From NCBI GenBank assembly GCA_025336725.1, contig GCA_025336725.1_3647.1: a DNA stretch of 64,000 nucleotides; one strand, written 5' to 3'. Origin of the DNA: Escherichia coli (lineage in GTDB: Bacteria; Pseudomonadota; Gammaproteobacteria; Enterobacterales; Enterobacteriaceae). Positions 5,612-59,209 of the stretch are shown here, in pieces. The notes beneath the pieces are model-generated. The model was not told the origin of the DNA, ran no database searches, and worked only from the letters and a program-made list of their open reading frames with translations. The position numbers and the translations under genes are program-made. Each line of letters starts with the position of its first letter. Position 1 is the stretch's first letter.

Positions 5612-5913
5612 CAGAAACCTCCTGTCTCTTCAGCAAATGCAGCCGCTGTTGTTGCTGCATCCAGATAAGACTCTAGTTCACGTGCTGCCCGTTTGTAAAT
5701 CGAGTGGCGAATATCGTTCGGCAGTTGGTAAAAATCCACCTCTTCTCCGTTGTGGTAAACATGCACATCAGTAATCTGTCTAAATCCATAATAATCAACA
5801 TCAGAATCACGGCACTCTGGATCTGGCAACTGGACAACTGCCTGAGCCTCTACAGTGAGCATATTGTCAAGTTCGAAATCGATTTCAAAAGTGTATGGTT
5901 TATAACGCTTCAT
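5611..5913 (-). CDS. hypothetical small acidic protein
   Basis: 100 aa ORF, start/stop abutting neighbour. Confidence 0.5.
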   Translation of the reverse strand: MKRYKPYTFEIDFELDNMLTVEAQAVVQLPDPECRDSDVDYYGFRQITDVHVYHNGEEVDFYQLPNDIRHSIYKRAARELESYLDAATTAAAFAEETGGF

Positions 5914-5974
5914 CGTTTGGTGTTCTCCTTAGTTTTTGTGGGGAGGAGTGCCTCCCCTTTATACTCACATTTTA

Positions 5975-6316
5975 CTACTCAAGGTCTTCAGAGTCAAGCT
6001 CAAAAAGAATCAAACTGTGCATGCCTGCAGAGAGATCAACACACCCTGCAACAATAAGGGTTTGATAGTAAGGTTCAGCACCCTCAATATCTTCGTTAAA
6101 ATCCACAACAAGGTAGTCACCTTTGTTAAAGGTGTATTTGTCCGATGTAAACGCAAAACCTGCCCAGTCCCCTACTGCAGGATCTTTATCAGTCACCTTT
6201 GTTAGTAGTAGATCTTTTTCACGAGATCTTTTAGTAAAATCGTGAATCACAACATCCTTCTCTTCAGGAGTCGGATTGCCACACACGTAGTTAACGATAT
6301 TTCTCCACAAACTCAT
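5975..6316 (-). CDS. hypothetical protein
   Basis: 113 aa ORF, 4-nt overlap with downstream helicase gene. Confidence 0.5.
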   Translation of the reverse strand: MSLWRNIVNYVCGNPTPEEKDVVIHDFTKRSREKDLLLTKVTDKDPAVGDWAGFAFTSDKYTFNKGDYLVVDFNEDIEGAEPYYQTLIVAGCVDLSAGMHSLILFELDSEDLE

Positions 6317-16642: not shown

Positions 16643-18124
16643 ATGGCCCCTTCTGGAGTTTTAATGGATAGCAGAAGTTCAGAAATCATTACCGCACAAA
16701 AAGATGATGCCTTGCGAATGCTGCAGGCCGCTCGCATGTACCTTCTTGAAAAGCTGCCGTTTTATGGCACACTGTTGTCAGGGTTGCAGTTCGTAGAAAA
16801 CCACACATGGTGCTCCACTATGGCAACAGACCATAAACGCATCTACTACAGCCCTGAGTTCATTATGGGGTTGGCAGATGAGCGTAAAACCATTCTTAAA
16901 GCATCTCTGACTGACAAGCAGTTTGAGATGGCTGAGGTTTTCTATTCCCCAAAATCTGTGAAAGAGGTGGCCTTCCTTCTGTCACATGAGGTGGGGCATA
17001 TTATCTGTGATCATCTGGTCCGTGGTAAAAGCTTTGAGCCGGAACTGTTCAATATTGCTTGTGATCACGTTATCAACACAGGTCTTGTGGTTGACTTTAG
17101 CAAGCCTCCTTGTGTTTTCTTCCCGAAGGGGAAAAGCACTGAGTTCGTAAAAGGTAAGCCTTTTGGCTTCTTAGCTAATTGCTACTGCGACATGAAGTTT
17201 CATGGATGGATTGCTGAGAACGTCTATGCAGTTCTTGATAAACAAAGAGATCAGAATAGCGGTAAAAGTAAGAACGGTAAAGGCGAGAACTTCCAAGGAG
17301 ATAAACGACAAACCGATGATCACATGAGCGGGAACGGTGGCACCAGTGATGATCTTGGAAAGGCTATGGGGTATGATCAGCCGCAACCAGTAATCAGTCA
17401 ATCTGATAAAGATCAGGCCATGCAGGACTCTGGTGACATGTTGGAAGCAGCAATGCAAGCTTCAGGAGGTCGTTGCCCTGAGGCGGTGCGCGAGTTTGTC
17501 AAAAACAGAGGCAAGCCTGTAATCAACTATATAGATATTATTAAGCAACGTATGTTGTCTAAACGAAAGGCCGAGCTAACCTACAGAAAACCTGGTCGCC
17601 GATCTGGGTCTTTGACCACCACAATGCGAAAAGTTGGAGCTATAAACAAGAATCAACACATTATTGTTCCTGGTCGTAATCCGGAAAACACCATAGATAT
17701 TGTAGTGGCTTTGGACGTTTCTGGGTCGATCTCGCAAAGAACTTTAAAGAAAATGTTCAATGAGATCACCGGGTTGTGCAATTTGTATAAAGAGTTTAAG
17801 GTTACGATGTTCTGTTGGTCAACCGAGGTTGGAGAGGTTAAAGTATACACTCGCGGTAACATCGATGAGATGATTAACTATGAGGTCCACTCAACATGGG
17901 GCACAACAGCCGCCTGCGTGTTCGAGTATCTGGATGCTAACATACCGAATGCAAAAGATGTCATCGTCCTTACCGACCTCTACTTTGAGCACAACTTTGA
18001 ACAAAAGGCTGTTGACAACAAGTGGAAAAAGTACGATACTTTATGGGTTCTCACCGAAGGGTATAATAAAAATTATATCCCGAGCTTTGGGAAAACTGTG
18101 GAATTAATCGAGTATGCTAAGTAA
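16643..18124 (+). CDS. putative metallopeptidase / von Willebrand factor A domain protein
   Basis: 493 aa; HExxH motif (LLSHEVGHIICDH) in N-terminal half; VWA MIDAS-like DxSGS (IVVALDVSGSIS) in C-terminal half. Confidence 0.6.
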   Translation: MAPSGVLMDSRSSEIITAQKDDALRMLQAARMYLLEKLPFYGTLLSGLQFVENHTWCSTMATDHKRIYYSPEFIMGLADERKTILKASLTDKQFEMAEVFYSPKSVKEVAFLLSHEVGHIICDHLVRGKSFEPELFNIACDHVINTGLVVDFSKPPCVFFPKGKSTEFVKGKPFGFLANCYCDMKFHGWIAENVYAVLDKQRDQNSGKSKNGKGENFQGDKRQTDDHMSGNGGTSDDLGKAMGYDQPQPVISQSDKDQAMQDSGDMLEAAMQASGGRCPEAVREFVKNRGKPVINYIDIIKQRMLSKRKAELTYRKPGRRSGSLTTTMRKVGAINKNQHIIVPGRNPENTIDIVVALDVSGSISQRTLKKMFNEITGLCNLYKEFKVTMFCWSTEVGEVKVYTRGNIDEMINYEVHSTWGTTAACVFEYLDANIPNAKDVIVLTDLYFEHNFEQKAVDNKWKKYDTLWVLTEGYNKNYIPSFGKTVELIEYAK

Positions 18125-19605: not shown

Positions 19606-20088
19606 ATGGCGGTCAATGTGGCTTACAACACAGGAAAGCTTGACAGAGACATTGGGTGTCTTGTCCTTTCAGATACAGAGGAGTATTGGGGTTATGGGTT
19701 GCTGTCAGACCCACACCCGAGCAACCTTGTATCAACGGTGCTCTATCGCTACGACCCTGTACCAACGGTGCACGACAAAGATATTCACGACCTTCGGATC
19801 AAGTGTCTGGAAGATCTTCTGAACAATGGCTGCAACGATCTGCGGGTAGCCAAGGAGAAGCTTACAAACATTCACAAAGAGGAAGTGATGAGCACCCTCA
19901 GTAAGAGGTCAGTGCACAAAAAGATGATGTTAAACTTTGCGATGGGTATCTACATGGATGGGTATAAGGGAGGGGATCCGATCCTCAAGCTTCGCTGCCC
20001 AACACTGTGGGAAAGAGTGGTTGACAGTAAAGACAGTACTGCCCTGCTAGAGAACTCCACACTGCAGGTTGGATTTGGCGGTATGTAG
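19606..20088 (+). CDS. hypothetical protein
   Basis: 160 aa ORF. Confidence 0.45.
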   Translation: MAVNVAYNTGKLDRDIGCLVLSDTEEYWGYGLLSDPHPSNLVSTVLYRYDPVPTVHDKDIHDLRIKCLEDLLNNGCNDLRVAKEKLTNIHKEEVMSTLSKRSVHKKMMLNFAMGIYMDGYKGGDPILKLRCPTLWERVVDSKDSTALLENSTLQVGFGGM

Positions 20089-23057: not shown

Positions 23058-26000
23058 CTACAATGTTACCTGCCTTGAGGTCAGCTTTAGAGAAGCTGGG
23101 GTGCCGTTATATGTGTGTGTCCCTGAGAAGGTTACATCTGCCTTGCCGTTGGAGATGCAAACCAAAGCATACTTCCTGTCAGGTAACTGTGCCCCAGTTT
23201 CTGGGTGAGTTTTACCCACCTGGAACACGCTCGGGTCAGTAGAGTCGTGGCTATCACTAACAGAGCTTGGACCCCCCATCAACTGTGACAAGCAATTCCT
23301 TACCCATGTCCAGTTATTGTCACTAGAGAAGTCTACAGTCAAATCAAACACAACCCACTCATTTGGCTTCCACACAGGTGTTGTGATCAACTTACCAACA
23401 CCCCCACCCTGAAGGGTAGGAGATTGTTCAGTGATCAAGGCAGAGTATGCCAGAGTTCCCAACTGCATAGTCTGGCTTGCTGTCCTCACTACCTTAGAAT
23501 CAGCATCTGTGAAGTTGTTGATGATCTGGAATGTGCCATAAGTGTTTTTACAGGTAATTCTGGCATTCAGTGTATCAATCTTTCTCACATCTGCCATGGC
23601 AGTGTTAGACACAGAGAAGTCAGAAGCTTTAGCTGAGTTTGCTGCAACAGCCGGATCAACGTTGAGGGTTGCGTTGAACTGGCAGGCAGGAGTAACCAGT
23701 AGCTTGTTATCACCTATTTGCTTCCATGAAACACTTTGAACAGGGAGATTCCATTTAATACCTGAGAAAACTTTAGCAACCCTTGGTCCCAAAGCTCCAG
23801 TTCTATTGTCTTTACAGCACATAGACATAGTGATCGTTGACGGAGTTGCTTGACCAAACAATTGCTGTGCTTTTGCAGAGGACATAGTGTAGAAATTGTC
23901 CTTAACAAACTCATCAGCCGCTAACGATCCGTCAGACCTCCACCATTGTACCTGGTACCCTGTCTTATCCCAGCCACCAACCTGCTTCAAGTCCTCCCAA
24001 GAGATTTCTAGATCCCCAGTGGTAGGATTGATTGCAGCAGTTCCTGGTGTACCGGATGACCACAATGGGATATCGAACCACGCAGGTTTAACAGATTGCA
24101 CTGCGTTAGGACCTATTGCAGCAGCAAGTTGCCGGCCCATCAATACGCGAGCATCTTTCACCAGACCCCACTCGATCATAGATCCAGAGTAACCTTCTTT
24201 CTTGTAGGCTGAGGATCCGTTCAGATGGATGAGTCTGCTGCAGTCGAAGCCATACGCCCCGCCACCGTTAGGGTCTGCAAAGTTAGTTATGATTCTATCC
24301 CTAATATTTTTCCATGCCCTACCTCCAATCTCGTAGCCATGATCATAGCATCTTTGCAACGTTGTCCAGCAAATGATTGCCATTCTTCTGCCGCCCGTGA
24401 ACCCGAAAGCGCCGTCATTCAGCTCTTTCCACAGGTAACAGTTGGTTGTCCACATAGCCCTGTGGATATTGAACCAGTTTATAGATTTAGCGGAGTTGTT
24501 CCACCGAGTTCCGGGTAATTCAGGCCACACTGCATTTACTAGCATGTCCTCTGTACCAGCATCTATCAGGAAGCCTCTTACCTTCTTGCCCATACCTGCC
24601 CTGTCTTTAGCAATCCAATTGCCAAACAGTCTCAGTTTTGGACCGTAGACAACATCTTCTGGATGCTCAAAAGAAACATACTTTAGATATACTGTAGGGT
24701 CACCATAGGTGCCATCACAAACAGCTTTGTGCATGTTCTCGCCAAGATCTAAACGAAGTCCTGTTACAACTTTAGACGTGTCGGTGAATTTGTCTGTTAA
24801 ATCAAATTCATACCACCACCATCCACCGCCAAGCATGAATTTCTTGCATCGCACAGTGTCTGTATCGGATATTCTCTTATCCCCAGCAAAAGGTGAATCA
24901 GCAAACTGATAGTGCAGAGCAGTCTCGAACAGATGTGTTGATGTGCCGTTTTCTGCAAGAACTTGCTTGCCTATTAAGTCACACTTAATGATCATCACAA
25001 CACGCTTGTACCCGTTTGTTACCGGAACTTGCATAGATATAGATGTTCCGTCCATGTTCGATCTTAGTACGGTCATGATGATATAGGGGTCAACAGCGTT
25101 GCCTAAAGTTTCAGGCCCTGGGATTATCTTGTACTTCTTGACCTGCCCCATAAATCTATCACTGGCGTAAGTTGCAGCCTCTAAGCAAGAGCCTCCACCA
25201 GGTAACTCACCAGGTCCCCAGAAAAATGCGCCATAACAGTTATAAAACCACTTGTTAGGGTCGTATTTGTTCTTGAAGGTCTGAACCTCGTTGGCCTGTT
25301 TTGTCAAGAAAACCTGCGTATCTGTGAAGATTGCAGGGTTTACTCTTGACTGTCGATTAGCATACCCGGTTTGGTTAAACCATTGATTGCAAGAGTAGTC
25401 CCTCATATAGTCATAATCAGAGTATTTGTTGTTTGCATCCTCGTTCCAACACATATTGAGGTTGGTGCCGCCCATGCACACAATATATTCTTCAACGTAT
25501 TTATCACTTCTGGTAGGAACACCTATGAACCATCTGTTAACAGGCTCATCCCAAGCGGTGCGCTCATCTTTAACGCAGATCGCAATCCAGTTATGTGTCC
25601 CTGTTTTCTTGCACACATCTCGCTTCATACCGTAGTAGAATTCTTTAGTATTTGGCTCAGGTGCGCTTATTAGGTAGCTCCACGCCTGGTCCGCATAGGT
25701 TCCATTGGTACGAGGGTCATGATCAAAAGCATACATGATGATCCTTTCCCCACCAAGATGTTCGCCAAGAGTAACTTTGATATTCACATCGCCGTAACCG
25801 TTGCGAACAACATCCATATTGTCAATAGAGATGCCTCTAGGGGTGTAGGCAATTTTCAGTGAGTTATCCTCACTAGTGCCACCAAGGGTGATCCCTATGT
25901 TGTTTGTTGTCCCGTCGGCATATCTTACTGTGGCTTCCCAGCGTATTCCGAAATATCCTACATCATGGCTGACAATTTTCAGTGTACGAGCACCAGAGTT

Positions 26001-31161: not shown

Positions 31162-31209
31162 GTTCTCCTGAGAAAATTCCTTAGACTATTTTAACACTTT
31201 AGAGAACAA

Positions 31210-31240
31210 ATGCAAGAACGGAGTCCTTTCCGTTCTGACC
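31210..31240 (-). terminator. terminator-like hairpin
   Basis: Minus strand GAACGG-AAAGGACT-CCGTTC followed by T-rich tract, upstream of fiber-1 RBS. Confidence 0.3.
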
Positions 31241-31368
31241 TTTGTTTACCTTTTACTATGCTCTACGAGCATGTGCAAAATCTTTTGTATAGTCGGCTCG
31301 ATGTTTCGAGACATCTGTCCTGACATCCTGCTTAAGGTCGTTAATATCGGCCTCTAGCTTGCTTAACT

Positions 31369-31560
31369 CTAAGTCTCGATAACGGAATCGTTATCTTTTT
31401 GTAACCATGCTATTTTCGACACTAAAATGAGGTCTTTCTCCAGCTCATCTAGCCTCTTGGAAATTCCTTTCATTTGCACACTGGTTGAAAGCCCATACAC
31501 AGATCGGGACAACAGTAGCTTCCATGCAGATACCGTATAAAGCCGCCAAATCCAACCCAC
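31369..31560 (-). CDS. small hypothetical protein; coiled-coil continuation in -1 frame to 31256
   Basis: GTG start 5 nt after strong GAGGAGG RBS; -1 frame continues ..LSKLEADINDLKQDVRTDVSKHRADYTKDF.. with no start codon. Confidence 0.4.
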   Translation of the reverse strand: MGWIWRLYTVSAWKLLLSRSVYGLSTSVQMKGISKRLDELEKDLILVSKIAWLQKDNDSVIET

Positions 31561-32956: not shown

Positions 32957-33018
32957 AAATCGCTCAGGTTATTATCACGTATTGTGATAACGGCCCTCTG
33001 TAAGGTGGGATCTGCTCG

Positions 33019-33213
33019 TCAGCAATATATTTTGCCCAAGTCCCGGAGCATATTGAAAATATAGTTAAGTTCTTCACATGACGGCTTTTGACCAAGATCC
33101 CAACCTTTTCTCCACAAATCATCAATCGGGCGTAGCCTGTTCTGTCTGTGGGTGTTAGGCAGAACCTGATCCTCCTCTGCCCAAATCTCTAATGGAAAAC
33201 TAGGTTTTGACAT
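33019..33213 (-). CDS. tail fiber 2, N-terminal domain ORF
   Basis: 64 aa; MSKPSFPLEIWAEEDQVL..KGWD.. homologous to 30811..31161. Confidence 0.5.
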   Translation of the reverse strand: MSKPSFPLEIWAEEDQVLPNTHRQNRLRPIDDLWRKGWDLGQKPSCEELNYIFNMLRDLGKIYC

Positions 33214-37591: not shown

Positions 37592-38144
37592 TTAGTCGTG
37601 AGACTCGTTCCAAGGTCCCTGGAAGCTTGAGTTAGAACGGCTTACCACAACAGTAGGACAGGATATTGCGACCCCTGTTACAGAAGACGTTGACCATGGT
37701 GTGTAGATTTCAACAACAATATCTATGGTTTGTTCACCAAGACCTGTTATCCCTACCGCACACATGCCGTTGTTGTCGTTTCCGTATTTCTTACCTGCAA
37801 GGATTTGATGTCCGGCTATCCAAACGTTGAGCTGGGGTTTCGGCAAGAGTAGCCATTCAGTTTAAAGAAGAATGTTACGTTCTTACCCTGACCTGAAACG
37901 TTATCTACGTATCTCCACCTCCAACGGCAAACCCTTTGCTTGGGAGTTATATACTGGAGCACAATCCCCGTAAGTCCCTGTGTGTGCAACAATTGCACCG
38001 AACTGGTTAGCACGGATAACAGAAGCTTCTACACGACCACGGAAGGTATCTCCGGTTGCATCTATGGTGCCTCTAAAGCTACCATTATTGGCATAAATAT
38101 CCCCACGGAAGGTACCACTAGTGGCGTTAACTGCCCCCGTGAAG
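37592..38144 (-). pseudogene. frameshifted 3' continuation of lambda J-like gene (receptor-binding region in three frames)
   Basis: After stop at 38145 a -1 frame encodes ..GNFTGAVNATSGTFRGDIYANNGSFRGTIDATGDTFRG.. (lambda J C-terminal-like), then two more frame changes (ORFs 37816..38013, 37592..37846). Confidence 0.5.
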
Positions 38145-41100
38145 TTACCAGAACTGGCGTTGAGCGTTGCCTTTCACCCACACATCCATAAATTGGGGCG
38201 TGCCCGTTCTTGTTAATATACCAACCGTATTTATGGTACTTCCGTTGCCATCGTAGTTGTTTGACGAAATCTCCTGTGCAATCTTGGCTGAAGAGATCGT
38301 GCCATTTTCTATGAAGGCATCTTTCAAGAACGCTTGGTTGTTCTTGATTGCGAAAGCAAGGGTTGCTGTTCCGTTTCCAGGGTTATATACCGCAAAATTG
38401 TTTGCACTAACCATAAAGTAGGATTGAACTTGGCCCCCAGACCCTTCCATCCCCAACTGGATACCTGCAACATATTTATTCCCTGCGGAGTCCACCTGTA
38501 TTTTTGTGCCCCACTGAGCGTTTACTTTACCCTCTAAGTCGGTTACAGCCTTAGATGTTGTAGCTACTGCAGCCCTGATCTCGGACACATCTCCAACATC
38601 ATCAATGATCTCCTGCTTAGCAACAGCAAGTTCTTGACGAATAGCTGACGCTGTTCCGTTAATCAGGTCAACAGTGGCCTGATTAGTTTCAGAAATATTT
38701 GCAGACAAATCTTTCTTAGCTTGGGTAAGCTTATTATCCAACCCCGTAATATTGTTGGTGTTGGTTGTAATCTGCCCTTTAGCAGAGGTTAATTGTTCAG
38801 ATAAGGCTGCAGTTTTCTGATTCAGCAGGTCCGTTGTGGCCTTGTTGGTGGTAGAGATCAATGTATTGAGATCAGATTTAGTGGTGTTGATCTTGCCATC
38901 TAGAGTGGTGTAGTTTTTAGATACCGTGGCGTTAGTCTGGCTAATCTTCTGGTCAAGAGTCTGAGAAGTTCTATTCAGCAAATCCACAGTGGCCTGATTG
39001 GTGCTCAGAATGCTTGCATCCAGCTCAGATCTCTGAGTATTCAACTTACCTTCCAGGCTCTTATCTCCAGCCAGATATCCTTTTTCAACATCACCGATCT
39101 GCTCGGTTAGCTCACCTTGTGCAGCAACCAGTTTTTCATCCAACGCATCTGTTTTCTTGTTAAGAAGATCAGTGGTGGATTTGTTGGTTGTCTCAATCAA
39201 CGACGACAGTTTGGCACTCTCATTATTCAAGTTGTTGGTCAACTCACCTTTCGTTGCCGTCAGCTTATTGTCCAGTGCCTCGGTTTTCCGATTAAGGAGA
39301 TCTGTAGTCGTCTTATTGGTTGATACAATCAGAGAGTTCAGCTCAGAGCTTTCCTGTGCTAAAGCATCTTCCAACTCCCCCCTTGTTGAAACAATCTTCT
39401 CGTCCAAAGCTTCAGTTTTCTGATTTAGCAGATCGGTTGTAGCTTTGTTAGTGGTCTGGATTAGAGAAGTCAGCTTGCCACTTTCTTTAGAAAGATCATC
39501 TGCAAACTTGTTCTGAGTGGCTACCAGTTTCTGGTCTAGAGTGGTAAGCGTTCCATTAACGTCCTGGAAGTTGTCGTGGGTTTCTTGGATGAATATTCCA
39601 ACCCTATCCCCCAACTGAGCATACAGCTTGTCTACTCTAGAGAACTCACCTTCCATGTGGTCAAAAGCCTCGTCAACTCTACCATCCATGTACCTGTTAA
39701 GTTCTGTGACACGATTTTCAACCTCTTCAATAGAGGAATCCAAAGTGCTCATCAACTCTTTATAAGTTTCTGTCTTTTTGAATTCAGCATCTATCTGAGG
39801 CATCAAATCCTCGATAGAGGTGTAGCAGCGTGCAGCGCATTCTACAAACTGAGAGCTACCAAAAGCGTTTGTGGTTCGAATATACCAATAATAAACCTTA
39901 TCGTTCTGCAGGCCTTCAGATGTCCAAGTTGAACCAACACCCATACGGGTGGCGTTTGAAGTAACGGTTGCATCGCTGGTGTCGGGCAACCTTGTCATAC
40001 CAGATGTCCAAAAGTCATACTGGGTGCTTACACTTGCTAAATCCCTGCTGTGTGGAATCAAGGTGATAGCAAAGTATCCCTGCTTAACCTCTACAGAAAC
40101 AGGAGCTTCAGGTGCCTGAATGTTAAACTCGCAGTACGCTTCTGGAGATACACCACCTTTATAAGATGTTGCAACCACGGTTGCTGTGTATGATCCTTTG
40201 GTCAAGCCTTCTACTCGGACAAACTGCTCAACTGTCTGTGCTGTCCAAACAATCTCTCCGTTCTTTCTTACCTGCACAATATTTTGAGCGTAAGTTCCAA
40301 CGTTGTCCCAAGCCAAAACACCGTGAGTTACTTCCCCGGCTTGGAGAACGGAATACCTGAAGTTTTGCGGTTGAGCTACACCAGATGGAGATATCGGAAT
40401 ATCTACATTACCAGAGTCCGGAAGTTGTCCTGTGGCATCATTCCACTCTTTAGCATCTTGACGGAGTTTTACCTTGACACCACCCTTTTTAGTAAACTCC
40501 CATTCAAGAACCCTCATTTCTTGGCCCACTATACCAATACTTGGGAGGTTCATTGTAACGTAACGACCAGGTTTAAATTTAAAACCTCGCATATTGCAGG
40601 TGACTTCAATAATCCTGCCAGCTCTAGCGCGTCTTAAGAAGATTGCAGAAACACGCTGGGCTTGATAAGGGCTGGTAACAAAGCGATAGTCTATATCGAT
40701 TATCTTTCTTTCTCCATCCTTCTCTATCCACTCTGGGACAAACACTGATGGAAAATCTGTTTCAGAATATCCTTTGGTCGGGCTAGTGAATCTGCCAGTT
40801 ATTGTGTTGGATCTTTTGTCAAACGAGGCTTCCGGATAGATCTTAACCTCACCACAGACACAGTCCTCACTCAGTGTCATTGTTGCAGGGCCATAGTATG
40901 CACCAACCAGCAAACCATACTTACCAGCAACATAACTAAGATCTGCACCACAGGCTTTCAGCATTTCTGCCATAATACTTGCTGGGGCCTCATCCATGTC
41001 GAACTCACCGTTAATTGTGTAACGTCGCTCACTGGTTCCGTCAGCGTTTTTTACCGCCTCGTCGCATATGTTGGCAGCCTCCTTGAAGGACTCCCAGTTG

Positions 41101-50533: not shown

Positions 50534-51118
50534 TTAGTTAACATCAATAGCACGACCAGACTGGTTGGCAATAGCCTCATCATTGGAGGTAGCAATAACA
50601 CCAGAGTATTCGCGCTCATCTGGAGCAAGCGTCCAGGTATTGCGGTTAATGGTTTGTTCTGCCTCAGTCATCAGCAGATCTTTATCCTGAGTCAACAGAG
50701 AGCCTACAGGGATCGGGTTTTCCATCTCAGGACCAGCATACTGGTTCCACCATGTGGCATCTCCGGTTCTAGGCAATCTGAAGTTGATCAGGTAGTACAG
50801 TTTATTAGCCCACTTAATCCAACCCTCATCATCACAGAGAGAGGTTGTCCCAGAATCAGGCTGTGGGTAGGTGAACTGATCAAGACCTACGAAAGCCAGC
50901 CTTACAATCTCGTTCTCTTTGGTAACAACCTCAAAGAACGCTTGGTATGTTCTAGATCTTCGATCCATGGTAGACTGGAAGTTTATGATGTTTAGCACAT
51001 CCGGCTCTTGTCTTGCCACTTCCATAATCTTGTTATCAAGAACAGTCTTCATGACCTTCTTGCTGAGAAAGTCCATATAAGGGAGCAAACAGCTCGTCAG
51101 CAGCCAGCTCCCTTCCAC
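50534..51118 (-). CDS. baseplate wedge protein gp25/W-like, C-terminal part (frame-split)
   Basis: ORF-track GTG start without RBS; ..KIMEVARQEPDVLNIINF.. downstream of N-part in another frame. Confidence 0.4.
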   Translation of the reverse strand: MEGSWLLTSCLLPYMDFLSKKVMKTVLDNKIMEVARQEPDVLNIINFQSTMDRRSRTYQAFFEVVTKENEIVRLAFVGLDQFTYPQPDSGTTSLCDDEGWIKWANKLYYLINFRLPRTGDATWWNQYAGPEMENPIPVGSLLTQDKDLLMTEAEQTINRNTWTLAPDEREYSGVIATSNDEAIANQSGRAIDVN

Positions 51119-53332: not shown

Positions 53333-53878
53333 TTATTTTCCGTTAACTTTGTTGTAGTTCCCCTGCTCAGATGGGACTATGGTGGAAGGTCTTCCATATT
53401 CCTGATAATACCAATCTGCAGCCGATTGGGTAACACCGTTTTCATCTGTCCACATCATGGATTTGTATGGCTGCCACTCTTCTGCAGCATTTGTGGACGC
53501 GGTGTCTGCAAATGCCCCTGTGTCTCTCTTGTTACCTACGTTACTACCATTCTTGCAATCGTTGACAGCCCCTTTTTGCTGGGTCTTGCCGACCTTCTTG
53601 GGGTTGCTGTATACAGTTGCATTAACAACCTTGTTCAAGTAGAATGTGCGGAATTCTGTAAGTTCCACATCAAACACCATTGCAGCACCCTCACCAACAG
53701 ACTTGTTGGCAGAAAGACTGGTTATAATGTAGTTTTCAAGGAGTCTCTCTTCAGTAACTAAAGAAACCAACTGCCGCTTATTAATGATCTCGTCAAAGTT
53801 TCCAGTGCAGCGCCGCAAGTCGCATAGACGCTGCAGGGTTTTTAGAGTCAGTATTCCTGTCAATGTAGTTTTGCTCAT
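53333..53878 (-). CDS. hypothetical tail protein
   Basis: 181 aa; ATG at 53878 directly after in-frame TAA; overlaps upstream ORF by 86 nt. Confidence 0.4.
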   Translation of the reverse strand: MSKTTLTGILTLKTLQRLCDLRRCTGNFDEIINKRQLVSLVTEERLLENYIITSLSANKSVGEGAAMVFDVELTEFRTFYLNKVVNATVYSNPKKVGKTQQKGAVNDCKNGSNVGNKRDTGAFADTASTNAAEEWQPYKSMMWTDENGVTQSAADWYYQEYGRPSTIVPSEQGNYNKVNGK

Positions 53879-54218
53879 AGATTATATGTGGTGATGTATT
53901 TACCCTACCAGTAAAAGAAAATACACCATCTTTAATTACAGCGTGGTCTGACAGGGTAGATTTATCTTCCACCGCAAACCCAGTCTTATCAACAGAATGT
54001 TTGAAAGAATAGTTCTCAACCTGGTCGAAGATAATGGCAAGATCGTTAGTAAAGTTTTTACCCTTCATCTCCGTATTGCGACCACCATAGTTAAGACCGC
54101 TGACAAACATAGTATACTTTACATCGCTTTCAGTTTGCTGCTCTGCCTTTTCAGCCTTTGGAGATTTAACCTCTTGAGGCTTGTACAGGTCTTTTTCATC
54201 AACTATATTGCTTGGCAT
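53793..54218 (-). CDS. hypothetical tail protein
   Basis: 141 aa ORF; 3' end overlaps next gene in a different frame. Confidence 0.4.
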   Translation of the reverse strand: MPSNIVDEKDLYKPQEVKSPKAEKAEQQTESDVKYTMFVSGLNYGGRNTEMKGKNFTNDLAIIFDQVENYSFKHSVDKTGFAVEDKSTLSDHAVIKDGVFSFTGRVNTSPHIIYEQNYIDRNTDSKNPAASMRLAALHWKL

Positions 54219-54323: not shown

Positions 54324-54464
54324 TTACCAAAGGTCGGTAGACATGAAGTTGATATCTTTATTGTTCTCCCACTCAAGTTTTGCATCAAATATTTTGTTAA
54401 ACTCGCCCTCATCTATTGAAATCGTGATTTTCCCATCACTGATCTCTAAAGGTAGCATTTCCAT
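54324..54464 (-). CDS. small hypothetical ORF (46 aa)
   Basis: MEMLPLEISDGKITISIDEGEF.., below ORF-track cutoff; sits just upstream of terminator; weak RBS. Confidence 0.25.
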   Translation of the reverse strand: MEMLPLEISDGKITISIDEGEFNKIFDAKLEWENNKDINFMSTDLW

Positions 54465-54637
54465 AGTTCTTAATTGAGAAGCAAAACCGAGGCCACCCCG
54501 GCAACGGAAAATCCCGCCCCATTAAGGTGTCCAAAGGATTAACAAACCCGTTACCTCAAATGAAAGTATCTTTGCGAATCATATCGCTGATAGCATCCAG
54601 CTGCTGATTTCTTTCACTTAGTGGGTTGTAACGGTCA

Positions 54638-56662
54638 TTAAATAATTCCGGCGCTTAGTATTATACCGATAATGCCCAGCTTACCGAGCAGACCAACTTT
54701 GCCACCAGGTGTCTTGAGGCCACCCCCACCTTTTCCTGCCGGAGCTCCACCACCAGATCCTTCTGTAGTAGCGGCACCAGCTGCTGCTGCTGCTCCAGCT
54801 GCACCCCTTAGAGAGTTAAGGAATTTAAAGGTTTTTACAAGCATGGATGCCATGACAAAACCTTTTGTTAGGGCGTTGACTACCAGCATGATGGCAGCAG
54901 CAAACCCTGCCCATTTAGCATAGCTAAAGGTGTCATGAAGCTCTTCAGAATATTCCTTCGTCTTAGCTGTTATGAATCCCCATTTAATCCCCCATTCAAG
55001 GAAAAACATGCGGATCTTGACTATAGTGTTGTTTAGTTCACCAACTACCCAGTTAAGGCCTCTCACAAACCCGCTAACAAAATCACCAGAGGCATCCACA
55101 CAAATTACGGGGAGTCTCGCCAGTGCGAATCAGTGTATAATGAACTCTGTTAATTCATCGCTTAACGGGTGAACAGCTTCTGACAGGATAATTCGATGAA
55201 GGTTTTCAGTCTGTTTTCTGCCAATGCGTTAGACTTCTGCATTCTTTCATAACCGGCTGCAGATGCCTCGTTCATATACTTAGCCACATACTTCATGATC
55301 TTGGCTGTCTTAACCTCACCTTTCTTCATCATGTCCATGAACTGATCCATGGACAGTTCAGAAAAGACCAAAAGCCTCTTTGGTGGCTTTGATAAAGGTT
55401 ATGCGGGCAATGCTTCAGCAAGTTGTTGCTTCAGTTCTTCGGACATTACCTGTCCTTTCCCGAGCAATTTGCTGGATTGCCATGATACCACGCTGGTATT
55501 TTACCTCATCGGCACCATAAGCAGCAGCATACTGTGAGTATGCAGAAAACAGCTCATGCACTTCCTGATTTGTCATCTGGTTTTTGGCGTTTACCGACAT
55601 CTGGGCGTAACCTTGAAGACCAGATTTGAGATCAAAACCAAGACGCATAGCCTCTTGCTGGACAAACGCAACCTCACTGTTGGCTTTGTTTGGATCTCCA
55701 GTAACAGCAGTAAGAGCAGCACTTGCCCCCTCCATCATGTGACCAGATCTGTTCACAGCAGTAAATCCAGAGAAAGCCGTATACGCAGCTGTTGCATTAA
55801 TAACAGACCTACGTAAGTCTCTCATGGCATCACCAAGTGTAAGCGTTTGGCTGGTGGCGCTTTTAAATCCAGACTGCAGAGCTGACAGGTGGGCGTTAAA
55901 GGTTGACTTTTTCATCTCCCCGCGAGCAAACCTGGACTCTAACTCTGAGTATCCAGGCAAGCTTCCACGGAATCCGGCTCCATACTTGGCAGAAAGTCTT
56001 ATCGCAGAGTTGTAGAGGTGGGTTCTCCTTGCCTCACGATCCGACATAAGCCTATTATCCATGCCAGCTTTACTGTCCCTTCTTAGCTGTCTATGATAAC
56101 GATTCATAGCAGCTGTCTGAGCTTTCACAAGGTTAGGGTCGGAAGCCACACCACCCATATTAGGGTTACCAGGGATATACTTGAAAGATTTGGCATTAGC
56201 CAAAACTCTTGCCTTAGGTGCCTTATAACCGCCGTAAGACACTGGTGTAGATTTGGCAGCCTTTTTGGCCTCTTTAGCTTGCTGCTGGTAGAACTTACGC
56301 ATCCTAGCCATTTCTGGATTTTTAGCGGTAAGATTGCCTACAGCTTGTTTACGTCTCGCGTTCTCCCTACGTTCTATTGCGGCCCTTACTGCAGCCTCTT
56401 TCTTGGCTTGTGCTACGCTCTCCCTGTGCAGTTTAGCATTTGCCTGAGATTGCTGTCTGGCAACCCGCTGCATTGTTTGCTGGGTTTTAACAGCCACTGC
56501 CTGCCATCTACTCATCGGGTTGGCTGAGTTAAAATCCTCGCCAAGTTTCCTGAACTCCCTCCCAATACTGCGAATTTTCTCTACAGCTTTTTTGTAGGAG
56601 GAGTTCTCTATCTCAAAGCCAATCTTGTTGACTGTTGTGGCAACTATTTTGTTTGTAGCCAT
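54638..56662 (-). pseudogene. tail tape measure protein gene, apparently disrupted
   Basis: Three consecutive same-strand ORFs in three frames (55415..56662, 55162..55371, 54638..55099) downstream of G/GT chaperone; the two distal ORFs lack RBS and ATG; additional in-frame TAA. Confidence 0.5.
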
Positions 56663-56716: not shown

Positions 56717-57450
56717 TTATCCTCTCCTGCGCTTAGCTTTCGCAGCAGCTGCGGCAGCCTTCTGCTCCCGCTCCATTTCCCTGTTTTGGACGGTATCTAG
56801 GAATTCTTCGATATCAAGATACTCACAGAGCTTCAGGAAATACGCCATATCTGCAAGATTTAGCGATTCAAAATTTTCCCCTTTGAAATTCTTGAGCACC
56901 CTGCACCAAAGAAAGTCGAACCAGTTAAGTGAACTGTTCTTGGCTGCCCACTCACTGGCCCTCACAACAACCTTGCTTATTCCTGCTCTTCCGGAGTCTG
57001 ATCCAGATTGTTCACCTGCTGGATCATACCCATCTGCTGTAACATCTCCAGAAGGCTTCCTAAACCGTCTTGTGTGAAAAAACAGCCGTAGTTAACCTCC
57101 AGAACCTTACCTGCCAGCTTAATCATCTCCAGCAGATGCCCTGCAAACACAACATCAGGGTTAAGCTTATCCACACCATCCACGGTAATATCTTCGAACA
57201 AGATTTTAAATAACTCTTCAATAGAGTTATCATCAAGTTCCTGGAACAGGTAAGCTAGGGCTGTAGGAAGGACCTCTGCCATATTCTGACCGCCTGAGAG
57301 AATAGATCCACCGATAGCACCTAGCGGGACAGCCACAATCTTACCGATTTTAGGCATGTTTTTCATTGCTTTCATCGGCCCCCAGTGAGTGATCACAAAG
57401 TTGTGCCCTGCTAAATCAATCTCTGTTGTAGGTCTAAAGTTTATAGCCAT
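56717..57450 (-). CDS. tail assembly chaperone frameshift product (gpGT-like) via -1 ribosomal frameshift
   Basis: -1 frame is open from near the slippery site through ORF 56717..56965 (82 aa, no own RBS). Confidence 0.55.
56977..57450 (-). CDS. tail assembly chaperone (gpG-like)
   Basis: 157 aa upstream of tape measure; slippery heptamer near 3' end. Confidence 0.65.
   Translation of the reverse strand: MAINFRPTTEIDLAGHNFVITHWGPMKAMKNMPKIGKIVAVPLGAIGGSILSGGQNMAEVLPTALAYLFQELDDNSIEELFKILFEDITVDGVDKLNPDVVFAGHLLEMIKLAGKVLEVNYGCFFTQDGLGSLLEMLQQMGMIQQVNNLDQTPEEQE
57076..57082 (-). other. -1 slippery heptamer T TTT TTC
   Basis: Minus strand ..GGC TGT TTT TTC ACA..; forward strand A6 run 57077-57082. 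Confidence 0.55.
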
Positions 57451-57523: not shown

Positions 57524-58762
57524 TTAACCTTTCAACCAATCCAAGTATGCAGGATCATTTTTACCTTCATCGCTGTGCCATTCGAAGCGAGAGTTGCCGC
57601 TGTTTTCAAGGATATAGCAGCCTGCATTTTTAGCATTCCACTCTTGTGTTTTCTCAGGATCGTATAAGGACTCGTCCAACCCTAAATGCTTCAGTGTCTC
57701 TTGGATGTTTGACTTCCACCAAGCCTGTCTTGGCATTCTGCCACCACGGTAGCTCCAGAAGCTGGTAGATACCTGATCGTCCTCTGCCAAAATCCAGCCA
57801 TCCTCCTCCTTATAGGACACACCTGTGAAGTAATCCCTGTCAAGGAAGGATTGAACATGATCCATCTTAAACTCTTTTTGGATATGCTTAAACAGCTTAC
57901 TACGCCCACCAGGAACGTTACAGCTTGTTGCATACCTTACCATGTCCCACATAACGAAAGGGGTTACCTTTTGATCTCTGTTTTTCAATACCTTAAAACT
58001 CATACAAGCTACCAGCTCACCGTCAGATGTAAACAGACCCTTCTTCACTTCCTTGGCGGGAGCATACCCTTGAATGTGGTTTTTCTCCATAAAGTCACGG
58101 TAAGTTTTATTGTCCACATCCCTAACTGTGCACTTTCTGGCATAGACGGTCTTCTCGTCTTTGACTCCTAAAGCATTCTTAAGATATCTCTCAATGATAG
58201 GTCTTTTCCGAGCATCCTGCCAATCACAATCCCATATAGACAACATGCGAATACCTTGTTTTTCACAGGCCTTCCTTTTCAGGATGTGGTACCATTTCCC
58301 CTTACTATCCACGGAGTGCCAATAGGCACCATTATATTCCACAGCAAGCTTAAGCTCCGGGATATAAATGTCCAGCTCCATCTTTTTCTTGGAAGGATCT
58401 TTAAAGTTGTCCAGAATCCGCACGTTCTCTTCAATATCTCCGCTATAGACACTTTTAATGAACGTCAGGATCTCTTTTTCACCATTAGACTGATTGCGAC
58501 AGCAACGAGGGCATCCTTGTCCTTTCCCGTAATGGAATTCAGGACGCTGCATGAAGATATTCCCACACTCTTTGTGGCGCATCATCATAGGCGTTGAGGC
58601 GTTCACATAAGAGTCTTCAAAATACTCATAATCCCCACCATGAACTTCTACACATCTCTCAACTATTTCTTGGAAGCTAGGAACTTTTTTCACAGAAACA
58701 GACCTTGCTGCGCAAGTCTTGCACCCTTGCCCAGATAAATGCTTGCTGGGTTTCTGATACAT
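57524..58762 (-). CDS. homing endonuclease-like protein (zinc ribbon plus nuclease-like domain)
   Basis: 412 aa between tube and chaperone genes; N-terminal HGGDYEY..C..CG..F.Q.P..H..G.GCP.C zinc-ribbon; central ..LDIYIPELKLAVEYNGAYWH.. Confidence 0.45.
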   Translation of the reverse strand: MYQKPSKHLSGQGCKTCAARSVSVKKVPSFQEIVERCVEVHGGDYEYFEDSYVNASTPMMMRHKECGNIFMQRPEFHYGKGQGCPRCCRNQSNGEKEILTFIKSVYSGDIEENVRILDNFKDPSKKKMELDIYIPELKLAVEYNGAYWHSVDSKGKWYHILKRKACEKQGIRMLSIWDCDWQDARKRPIIERYLKNALGVKDEKTVYARKCTVRDVDNKTYRDFMEKNHIQGYAPAKEVKKGLFTSDGELVACMSFKVLKNRDQKVTPFVMWDMVRYATSCNVPGGRSKLFKHIQKEFKMDHVQSFLDRDYFTGVSYKEEDGWILAEDDQVSTSFWSYRGGRMPRQAWWKSNIQETLKHLGLDESLYDPEKTQEWNAKNAGCYILENSGNSRFEWHSDEGKNDPAYLDWLKG

Positions 58763-58849
58763 TATTCTTCCGCACGTTTTGCAATGAATCTCAACCTTAT
58801 CCCAGAGGTCTTGCTTACTACATGGCTATGACCATACTTTTCAGCATTT

Positions 58850-59149
58850 TCAAGGATATCTTTTTAATACCTTTTTGATCCACTCCTCGGTAGTGCACCT
58901 GTTACCACGCTCATGTGGGAATTTCTTACCCTTTCTTGATTTTGCAGATCTCTCAGCTCCACAAACAGGGCATCCTCTTTTTAGATTTATATGGTTATCA
59001 GGTGTCTGGTTGAAGTGGTTACCGCAGGTATTGCAGACTATTTCTACCTTATCTTTGCATGTTTTGTATTCTATAAGAGAATAATCGTACTTATCTCCGT
59101 GAACCCTACGAGCTTTTTCGATAAACCTTTCTGCACTCAATTTAGCCAT
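58850..59149 (-). CDS. small zinc-ribbon protein related to N-terminus of adjacent endonuclease-like gene
   Basis: 99 aa; HGDKYDYS..CNTCGNHFNQTPDNHINLKRGCPVCG parallels N-terminus of ORF 57524..58762. Confidence 0.45.
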   Translation of the reverse strand: MAKLSAERFIEKARRVHGDKYDYSLIEYKTCKDKVEIVCNTCGNHFNQTPDNHINLKRGCPVCGAERSAKSRKGKKFPHERGNRCTTEEWIKKVLKRYP

Positions 59150-59209
59150 AACTGTCTCCTCCTTTATTGTAGGATACTAAAAACAAACAAATATGTCAAA
59201 ACCCTAAAA

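Follow-up and report, generated by a model that had tools for sequence, protein, structure and literature searches.

A fragmented tape measure gene in a Vequintavirus-like sequence from an Escherichia coli assembly: a probable error of the sequence record

We propose that the tape measure gene of a Vequintavirus-like sequence, which appears as a series of short reading frames in an Escherichia coli assembly, has been fragmented by local sequencing or consensus error, and does not represent new biology. We put the odds of this reading at roughly three in four. The window, a stretch of 64,000 nucleotides from GenBank assembly GCA_025336725.1, can be assigned to Vequintavirus, the rV5-like myophages, and shares about 95% identity with rV5. 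One ordinary tape measure gene would have been corrupted in the deposited record, with small indels and miscalled bases occurring in patches, possibly in low-coverage or unpolished stretches of a phage contig assembled from an E. coli isolate. The real phage would almost certainly make a single protein of ~780 aa that sets a tail length of ~120 nm. No uninterrupted ORF of a length matching the tail is found, the longest having 415 aa, and this lack is most likely to be ascribed to the sequence record and not to the phage.

Tape measure proteins scale at ~0.15 nm of tail per residue. At this ratio, 778 aa would give a tail of ~117 nm and 415 aa one of ~62 nm. The tail of rV5 measures 121 nm (PMC3606486), which fits a protein of ~778 aa, and not one of 415 aa.

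Identity and extent of the tape measure gene

The gene lies on the minus strand, in the late structural module of the window (Table 1). A 2.5-kb query across the tape measure region matched 120 phage records, with coverage of at least 80% of the query in 117, and the top match among phage records reached 95.5% identity. Judged by its sequence, the gene is a known and ordinary one, the ortholog of rV5 gp049. In rV5, gp049 is a single ORF of 2337 nt encoding 778 aa, and the annotated records inspected (rV5, HdK5, FFH2, phage 203, ev147, ECP32 and SophiaRose) each hold one tape measure ORF of 2337-2340 nt. No break was seen in the tape measure region of any phage record inspected. When rV5 gp049 is aligned to the window by tblastn, residues 1-435 fall in frame -1, 398-524 in frame -2 and 503-671 again in frame -1, followed in the C-terminal part by 670-732 in frame -2 and 715-778 in frame -3.

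The initial annotation had taken three ORFs (ORF1 to ORF3) for one tape measure gene in fragments, and not for three genes. All three are present on the minus strand in the ORF listing, and their reading as one gene is borne out both by the single ORF of gp049 and by a single PHROG profile, which they match in order. Against phrog_5255 (800 positions), ORF1 covers positions 1-416, ORF2 452-520 and ORF3 544-684, a collinear series with E-values of 7e-178, 1e-25 and 7e-38, respectively. Further, a frame-repaired translation, in which the frame of rV5 was followed, scores 63.4 bits against Pfam TMP_3 (PF20155; cutoff 41). The domain occupies residues 310-488 of the repaired protein and spans the break between ORF1 and ORF2. 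ORF1 alone matches only profile positions 10-101, at 28.2 bits, which is under the cutoff.

Several details of that first description need revision. ORF1 and ORF3, said to lie in different frames, share one (their first-base coordinates are both 1 mod 3, and they appear in a single translation), and the three ORFs together use two frames. The third frame is used only by the piece at 54518..54327, which lies outside the three ORFs, matches rV5 gp049 residues 715-778 and includes a 46-aa ORF at 54324..54464. Nor does the gene end at 54638: it runs ~310 nt further, to its natural stop codon at 54326..54324. The proposed total of about 640 aa holds as a sum of the three ORFs (637 aa), but falls short of a gene of ~779 codons whose homology reaches 54324. 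The GTG and TTG starts are as described; they had been said to lack a Shine-Dalgarno sequence, and the TTG of ORF2 does have AGAGG 3 nt upstream, although this falls within conserved coding sequence (KEAFG). An in-frame TAA noticed between EALPA and PLSKPPK was located at 55401..55399. The last ~15 residues of ORF1 (RERTGNVRRTEATTC) are out-of-frame read-through, and ORF2 is limited on one side by the +1 insertion at 55365 and on the other by W502>TAA together with the -1 deletion at 55160-55164.

ORF3 is an exact protein match to hypothetical protein N5V81_21755 (MCT7477430.1), and a fragment of a nearby homing endonuclease is an exact match to MCT7477435.1 (N5V81_21780). Both proteins are encoded on a single contig of 122,420 bp in an NCBI E. 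coli draft assembly. A look-up of protein sequences returned no entry in the protein collection for the products of ORF1 and ORF2, and their absence would be consistent with a pseudogene being annotated there in the source record.

The tape measure gene lies directly downstream of a -1-frameshift chaperone pair, as the initial annotation had noted. The pair consists of a tail assembly chaperone at 56977..57450 (Pfam Phage_TAC_15, 84.5 bits) and a -1-frame ORF, the homolog of gp050, which is open from 57085 to 56717 and begins in overlap with the chaperone gene. A slippery heptamer, T_TTT_TTC, is found at 57082..57076, exactly where the -1-frame ORF starts to overlap the chaperone, and supports a predicted frameshift product of the G/GT type. 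rV5 gp050 and gp051 match the window at 98-99%, in one frame each.

Table 1. Features of the tape measure region, with coordinates in the window. Lesion groups extend over 55362..55467 (group 1), 55097..55164 (group 2) and 54489..54650 (group 3), all on the minus strand.
Feature	Position	Strand	Description
Tape measure gene, whole extent	54324..56662	-	Homolog of rV5 gp049 (778 aa); occupies all three minus-strand frames
ORF1	55415..56662	-	415 aa, ATG start; intact N-terminal half and first half of TMP_3
ORF2	55162..55371	-	69 aa, TTG start; middle tape measure fragment, in another frame than ORF1 and ORF3
ORF3	54638..55099	-	153 aa, GTG start; hydrophobic and Gly/Ala-rich region, in the frame of ORF1
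Two C-terminal tape measure fragments	54324..54654	-	54654..54466 (frame -2); 54518..54327 (frame -3)
Group 1: +1 T	55467	-	Private
Group 1: -7 deletion (55404) and scrambled patch	55397-55405	-	Makes TAA 55401..55399
Group 1: +1 T in T-run	55362-55366 (55365)	-	Private
Group 2: W502>TAA	55164..55162	-	Private nonsense codon
Group 2: -1	55160	-	Private
Group 2: -1	55142	-	Private
Group 2: +2 CC	55111-55112	-	Private
Group 2: Q521>TAA	55107..55105	-	Private nonsense codon
Group 2: -1 G	55098	-	Private
Group 3: -2 GG	54649/50	-	Private
Group 3: G702>TGA and scrambled patch	54558..54556; patch 54558-54566	-	Private nonsense codon
Group 3: scrambled patch	54510-54522	-	
Group 3: +1 G	54499	-	Private
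Group 3: CT>TC swap	54489-90	-	
In-frame +9 nt (GCAGCAGCT)	54779..54787	-	Ala-rich tract
Tail assembly chaperone pair	56717..57450	-	Both intact; upstream of the tape measure gene
Dit-like protein	53333..54218	-	Homolog of rV5 gp048 (294 aa); next gene downstream of the tape measure gene
Hef-like homing endonuclease	57524..59149	-	DUF723, phrog_559; between the tail tube gene and the chaperone

Lesions in the tape measure gene

Lesions were called from mafft alignments with rV5 and nine relatives, and then with 11 sequences comprising rV5 and ten further loci, which are independent assemblies encoding an identical chaperone protein. In a comparison with 20 relatives, nine frameshifting indels and three nonsense codons are private to the window; all lie in the C-terminal half of the gene, and the N-terminal half is free of them. 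The fragmentation seen at first stands, but the two junctions between the three ORFs understate these 12 disabling lesions. At the lesion sites, nine relatives agree with one another and the window differs. The alignment to related tape measure proteins that had been suggested shows one ORF of 778-780 aa in 20 of 20 relatives; in the ten further loci the gene has that length, is intact and is free of the window's lesions. An exact scan of viral contigs gave no match to either the -7 patch or the +1 at 55365, and an exact scan of metagenome and genome contigs gave none to the -7 patch. The closest relative of the C-terminal half is 93.7% identical.

The in-frame +9 at 54779-54787 is not counted among the lesions, and is ordinary length variation. 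Some relatives have +6 at this site, in proteins of 779-780 aa, and only three of the nine columns are still private. Among relatives, in-frame length changes in the Ala/Gly-rich tract give tape measure proteins of 778, 779 or 780 aa, and the window's +9 nt makes its tract the longest.

The lesions are unevenly placed, with 12 in the C-terminal 1.17 kb as against none in the N-terminal 1.16 kb (binomial p ~2e-4), whereas private synonymous changes are even between the two halves (13 and 11). Compared with rV5, the N-terminal half differs by 33 synonymous and three non-synonymous changes, and the C-terminal half by 26 and 19. All but one of those 19 non-synonymous changes are private, and most sit within the scrambled patches. 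Outside the patches, substitutions in the gene remain mostly synonymous, and a stretch of ~300 nt between patches (55097-54790) matches rV5 at 100% identity. This is not the pattern of a pseudogene in neutral decay, with random lesions and a dN/dS near 1 throughout.

Could the pieces be functional as written, either as three separate subunits or as one protein produced by programmed recoding? The ORFs are collinear on one strand, programmed -1 frameshifting takes place just upstream in the chaperone pair, and AGAGG precedes the TTG of ORF2 by 3 nt. To yield one protein from the sequence as it stands, however, translation would need at least nine frameshifts (+1, -7, +1, -1, -1, +2, -1, -2, +1) and three read-throughs within 1 kb. 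None of the lesions is conserved in the 20 relatives, each of which has the gene as one plain ORF, and the junctions consist of assorted private indels and nonsense codons, with no conserved slippery site. TMP_3 is cut internally, residues 401-435, 503-523 and 670-778 fall outside the three ORFs, and the nine other broken genes described below would require the same special pleading. We therefore give this reading hardly any credence, and both separately functional proteins and programmed recoding are effectively excluded.

Damage in other genes of the window

The tape measure gene is not alone in being broken. Nine other genes are affected: the Dit-like gene, four tail-fibre or baseplate genes, an Ig-like gene, the homologs of gp019 and gp031, and the homing endonuclease. 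Queries with rV5 gp019, gp027, gp030, gp031, gp033, gp037, gp044, gp048 and gp049 match the window in several frames or with stops, whereas the same queries against FFH2 and ev147 as controls are clean, gp012 excepted. The private breaks lie at 20049, 23083-23098, 26429, 30911, 31183-31556, 32958-33045, 37841-38240, 51085-51110 and 53791-53817, in homologs of gp019, gp027, gp030, gp031, gp033, gp037, gp044 and gp048. The homolog of gp027 (Ig-like) has two breaks, and that of gp037 is broken at its C-terminus. The same damage in nine other genes removes the ground for a cause peculiar to the tape measure gene and speaks for a problem of sequence quality.

As for gp012, it and gp013 look split in the rV5 record alone (L003 7756-9217; window 16664-18121). 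The window, FFH2 and ev147 shift frame at the same point of gp012, and FFH2 and ev147 annotate one longer ORF.

The two neighbours illustrate the kind of damage. In the Dit-like gene, a private +2 at 53816-17 and a -1 at 53791/2 leave two ORFs, of 141 and 181 aa, and cut Pfam Dit_like into profile positions 1-65 and 68-119; in ten of the ten extra loci this gene is intact at 294 aa. The homing endonuclease is carried by a 1.65-kb insertion relative to rV5 (57546-59193), rV5 being without the endonuclease. In the window, a private +1 at 58853 and a -1 at 58802 divide it into pieces of 99 and 412 aa, which match positions 121-200 and 224-603 of phrog_559 (607 positions). The same insertion, with an intact endonuclease of 541 aa, is present in L018, L020 and phage JEP1.

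Over 38.8 kb of well-aligned columns, the window shows 43 private indel events, 35 of them frameshifting, as compared with 1, 2 and 6 in rV5, FFH2 and ev147; counting frameshifting indels alone, the three comparison genomes have 1, 2 and 5. The events gather in hot zones at ~23.1, 25.4, 30.1-33.1, 37.8-38.2, 51.1 and 53.8-55.5 kb, and at 58.8 kb in the homing endonuclease, and there are zero private indels at 8.9-14.3 kb and 38.3-51 kb. Our preference for error in the record rests on this distribution: the lesions are private, patchy and far above the controls, they affect only half of the tape measure gene, although its two halves diverge equally at synonymous sites, and single conserved domains (TMP_3 and Dit_like) are cut mid-domain. 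Further, with its tape measure, Dit, baseplate and fibre genes broken, a lytic myophage could not build tails. Phage DNA abundant enough to be assembled from an E. coli culture suggests that the phage was replicating, and thus that its tail genes work.

Not all observations sit easily with error. The long indel-free stretches do not fit a uniformly error-prone long-read assembly, so that a local cause must be assumed. Substitutions near the indels are transition-biased like those elsewhere (Ts/Tv of 2.7 within 10 nt of private indels vs 3.6 elsewhere, p=0.27), which does not have the look of random noise, though nanopore miscalls are transition-biased too. If the assembly is short-read only, error would be a difficult explanation for the clustering of the indels.

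The main rival to error in the record is that the lesions are real, and that the sequence comes from a defective, non-infectious Vequintavirus genome with decaying late tail genes, for instance one carried along by a helper or wild-type phage in the culture. We consider this unlikely, though several features speak for it. The sequence derives from an E. coli isolate assembly and not from purified phage; apart from the homing endonuclease, only late and tail genes carry lesions, and in 1-20 kb every replication and early gene but gp019 is intact; the substitution spectrum near the lesions looks natural; and about half of the 1-2-nt indels sit in short homopolymers, as polymerase slippage would give. 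However, Vequintaviruses are lytic, a search of 5,426 complete E. coli genomes gave no match, and there is no known upkeep of a dead genome. One plasmid-labelled phage, CP057073.1, matches at 95.5% and is intact. Neutral decay would not give 12 lesions against none at equal synonymous divergence, nor would it spare the sheath, the tube, the baseplate hub and a further 13 kb of tail genes. Within the patches, indels are far more frequent relative to private substitutions than is normal, and no second sequence with any of the lesions was found among the 20 relatives or, for two of the sites, in the contig scans.

It seems quite improbable that the window represents a defective or helper-dependent derivative of a lytic phage which persists in an E. 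coli culture and in which tail-fibre, baseplate, Dit and tape measure genes are being inactivated in localised bursts. Such localised inactivation would stem from some local mutational process. If true, the genome of a lytic phage would have survived here in defective form, which would be unusual.

Two other candidate origins of the patches were considered and rejected. Gene conversion or templated mutagenesis found no donor for the scrambled patches, with only chance-level 10-mers elsewhere in the window, and a collapsed consensus of mixed strains finds no support, most hot zones lying at low to median reference diversity. Motifs at altered sites were also examined as a possible mark of methylation-related miscalls. 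CCWGG was seen by eye at four messy patches, but does not rank with the most enriched k-mers.

GTAC does belong to the most enriched k-mers at altered sites. Between 8899 and 57545, half of the GTAC sites conserved in rV5, FFH2 and ev147 (28 of 56) are altered in the window and 10 have been gained, an excess (p=5e-10) over the baseline 4-mer alteration of 14.7%. Each of the other three genomes has lost 4-6 of 32-34 sites. The changes are nearly all transitions (to GTAT, ATAC or GTGC), with 17 synonymous and nine non-synonymous, and look natural. The loss could reflect restriction-site avoidance or a methylation-linked miscall. The window also has no counterpart of the rV5 gp230 methyltransferase (442 aa), the homologs of gp229 and gp231 lying ~65 nt apart (5913-5978), and a connection between the absence of gp230 and the loss of GTAC is possible.

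Error in the record remains our preferred reading, and the case carries a caution. A fragmented essential gene here mimicked recoding or a split tape measure protein, and the appearance is a trait of one record. The N5V81 contig would best be flagged as unreliable in the hot zones, to keep its pseudo-ORFs from spreading as proteins.

Comparison with known systems

The chaperone pair next to the tape measure gene provides a standard for genuine recoding. The G/GT pair has a defined slippery heptamer, whereas the tape measure breaks have none that is conserved in relatives. A different parallel is found in the frameshifted pseudogenes of draft and long-read assemblies. As in those cases, the window has many small private indels, partly in homopolymers, that affect several genes of one contig. 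It differs in that its errors are clustered and accompanied by scrambled patches, and are not evenly distributed over homopolymers.

Structural work on a related rV5-like myophage, phi92, bears on the damaged half. In the solved virion structure (PMC13450770), the C-terminal region of its tape measure protein, gp134, is ordered within the baseplate and tube-initiator complex, and this order suggests that the C-terminus is needed. It would correspond to the scrambled region of the window.

The closest point of comparison is rV5 gp049 (YP_002003551.1) itself. The two genes share the same position, in the order tube, chaperone pair, tape measure, Dit-like and baseplate hub. They are ~95% identical in nucleotide sequence, and their N-terminal 400 residues reach ~99% protein identity. 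In its C-terminal half, the window's copy departs from rV5 gp049 and the Vequintavirus orthologs compared by nine frameshifting indels and three nonsense codons, none of which any relative shows.
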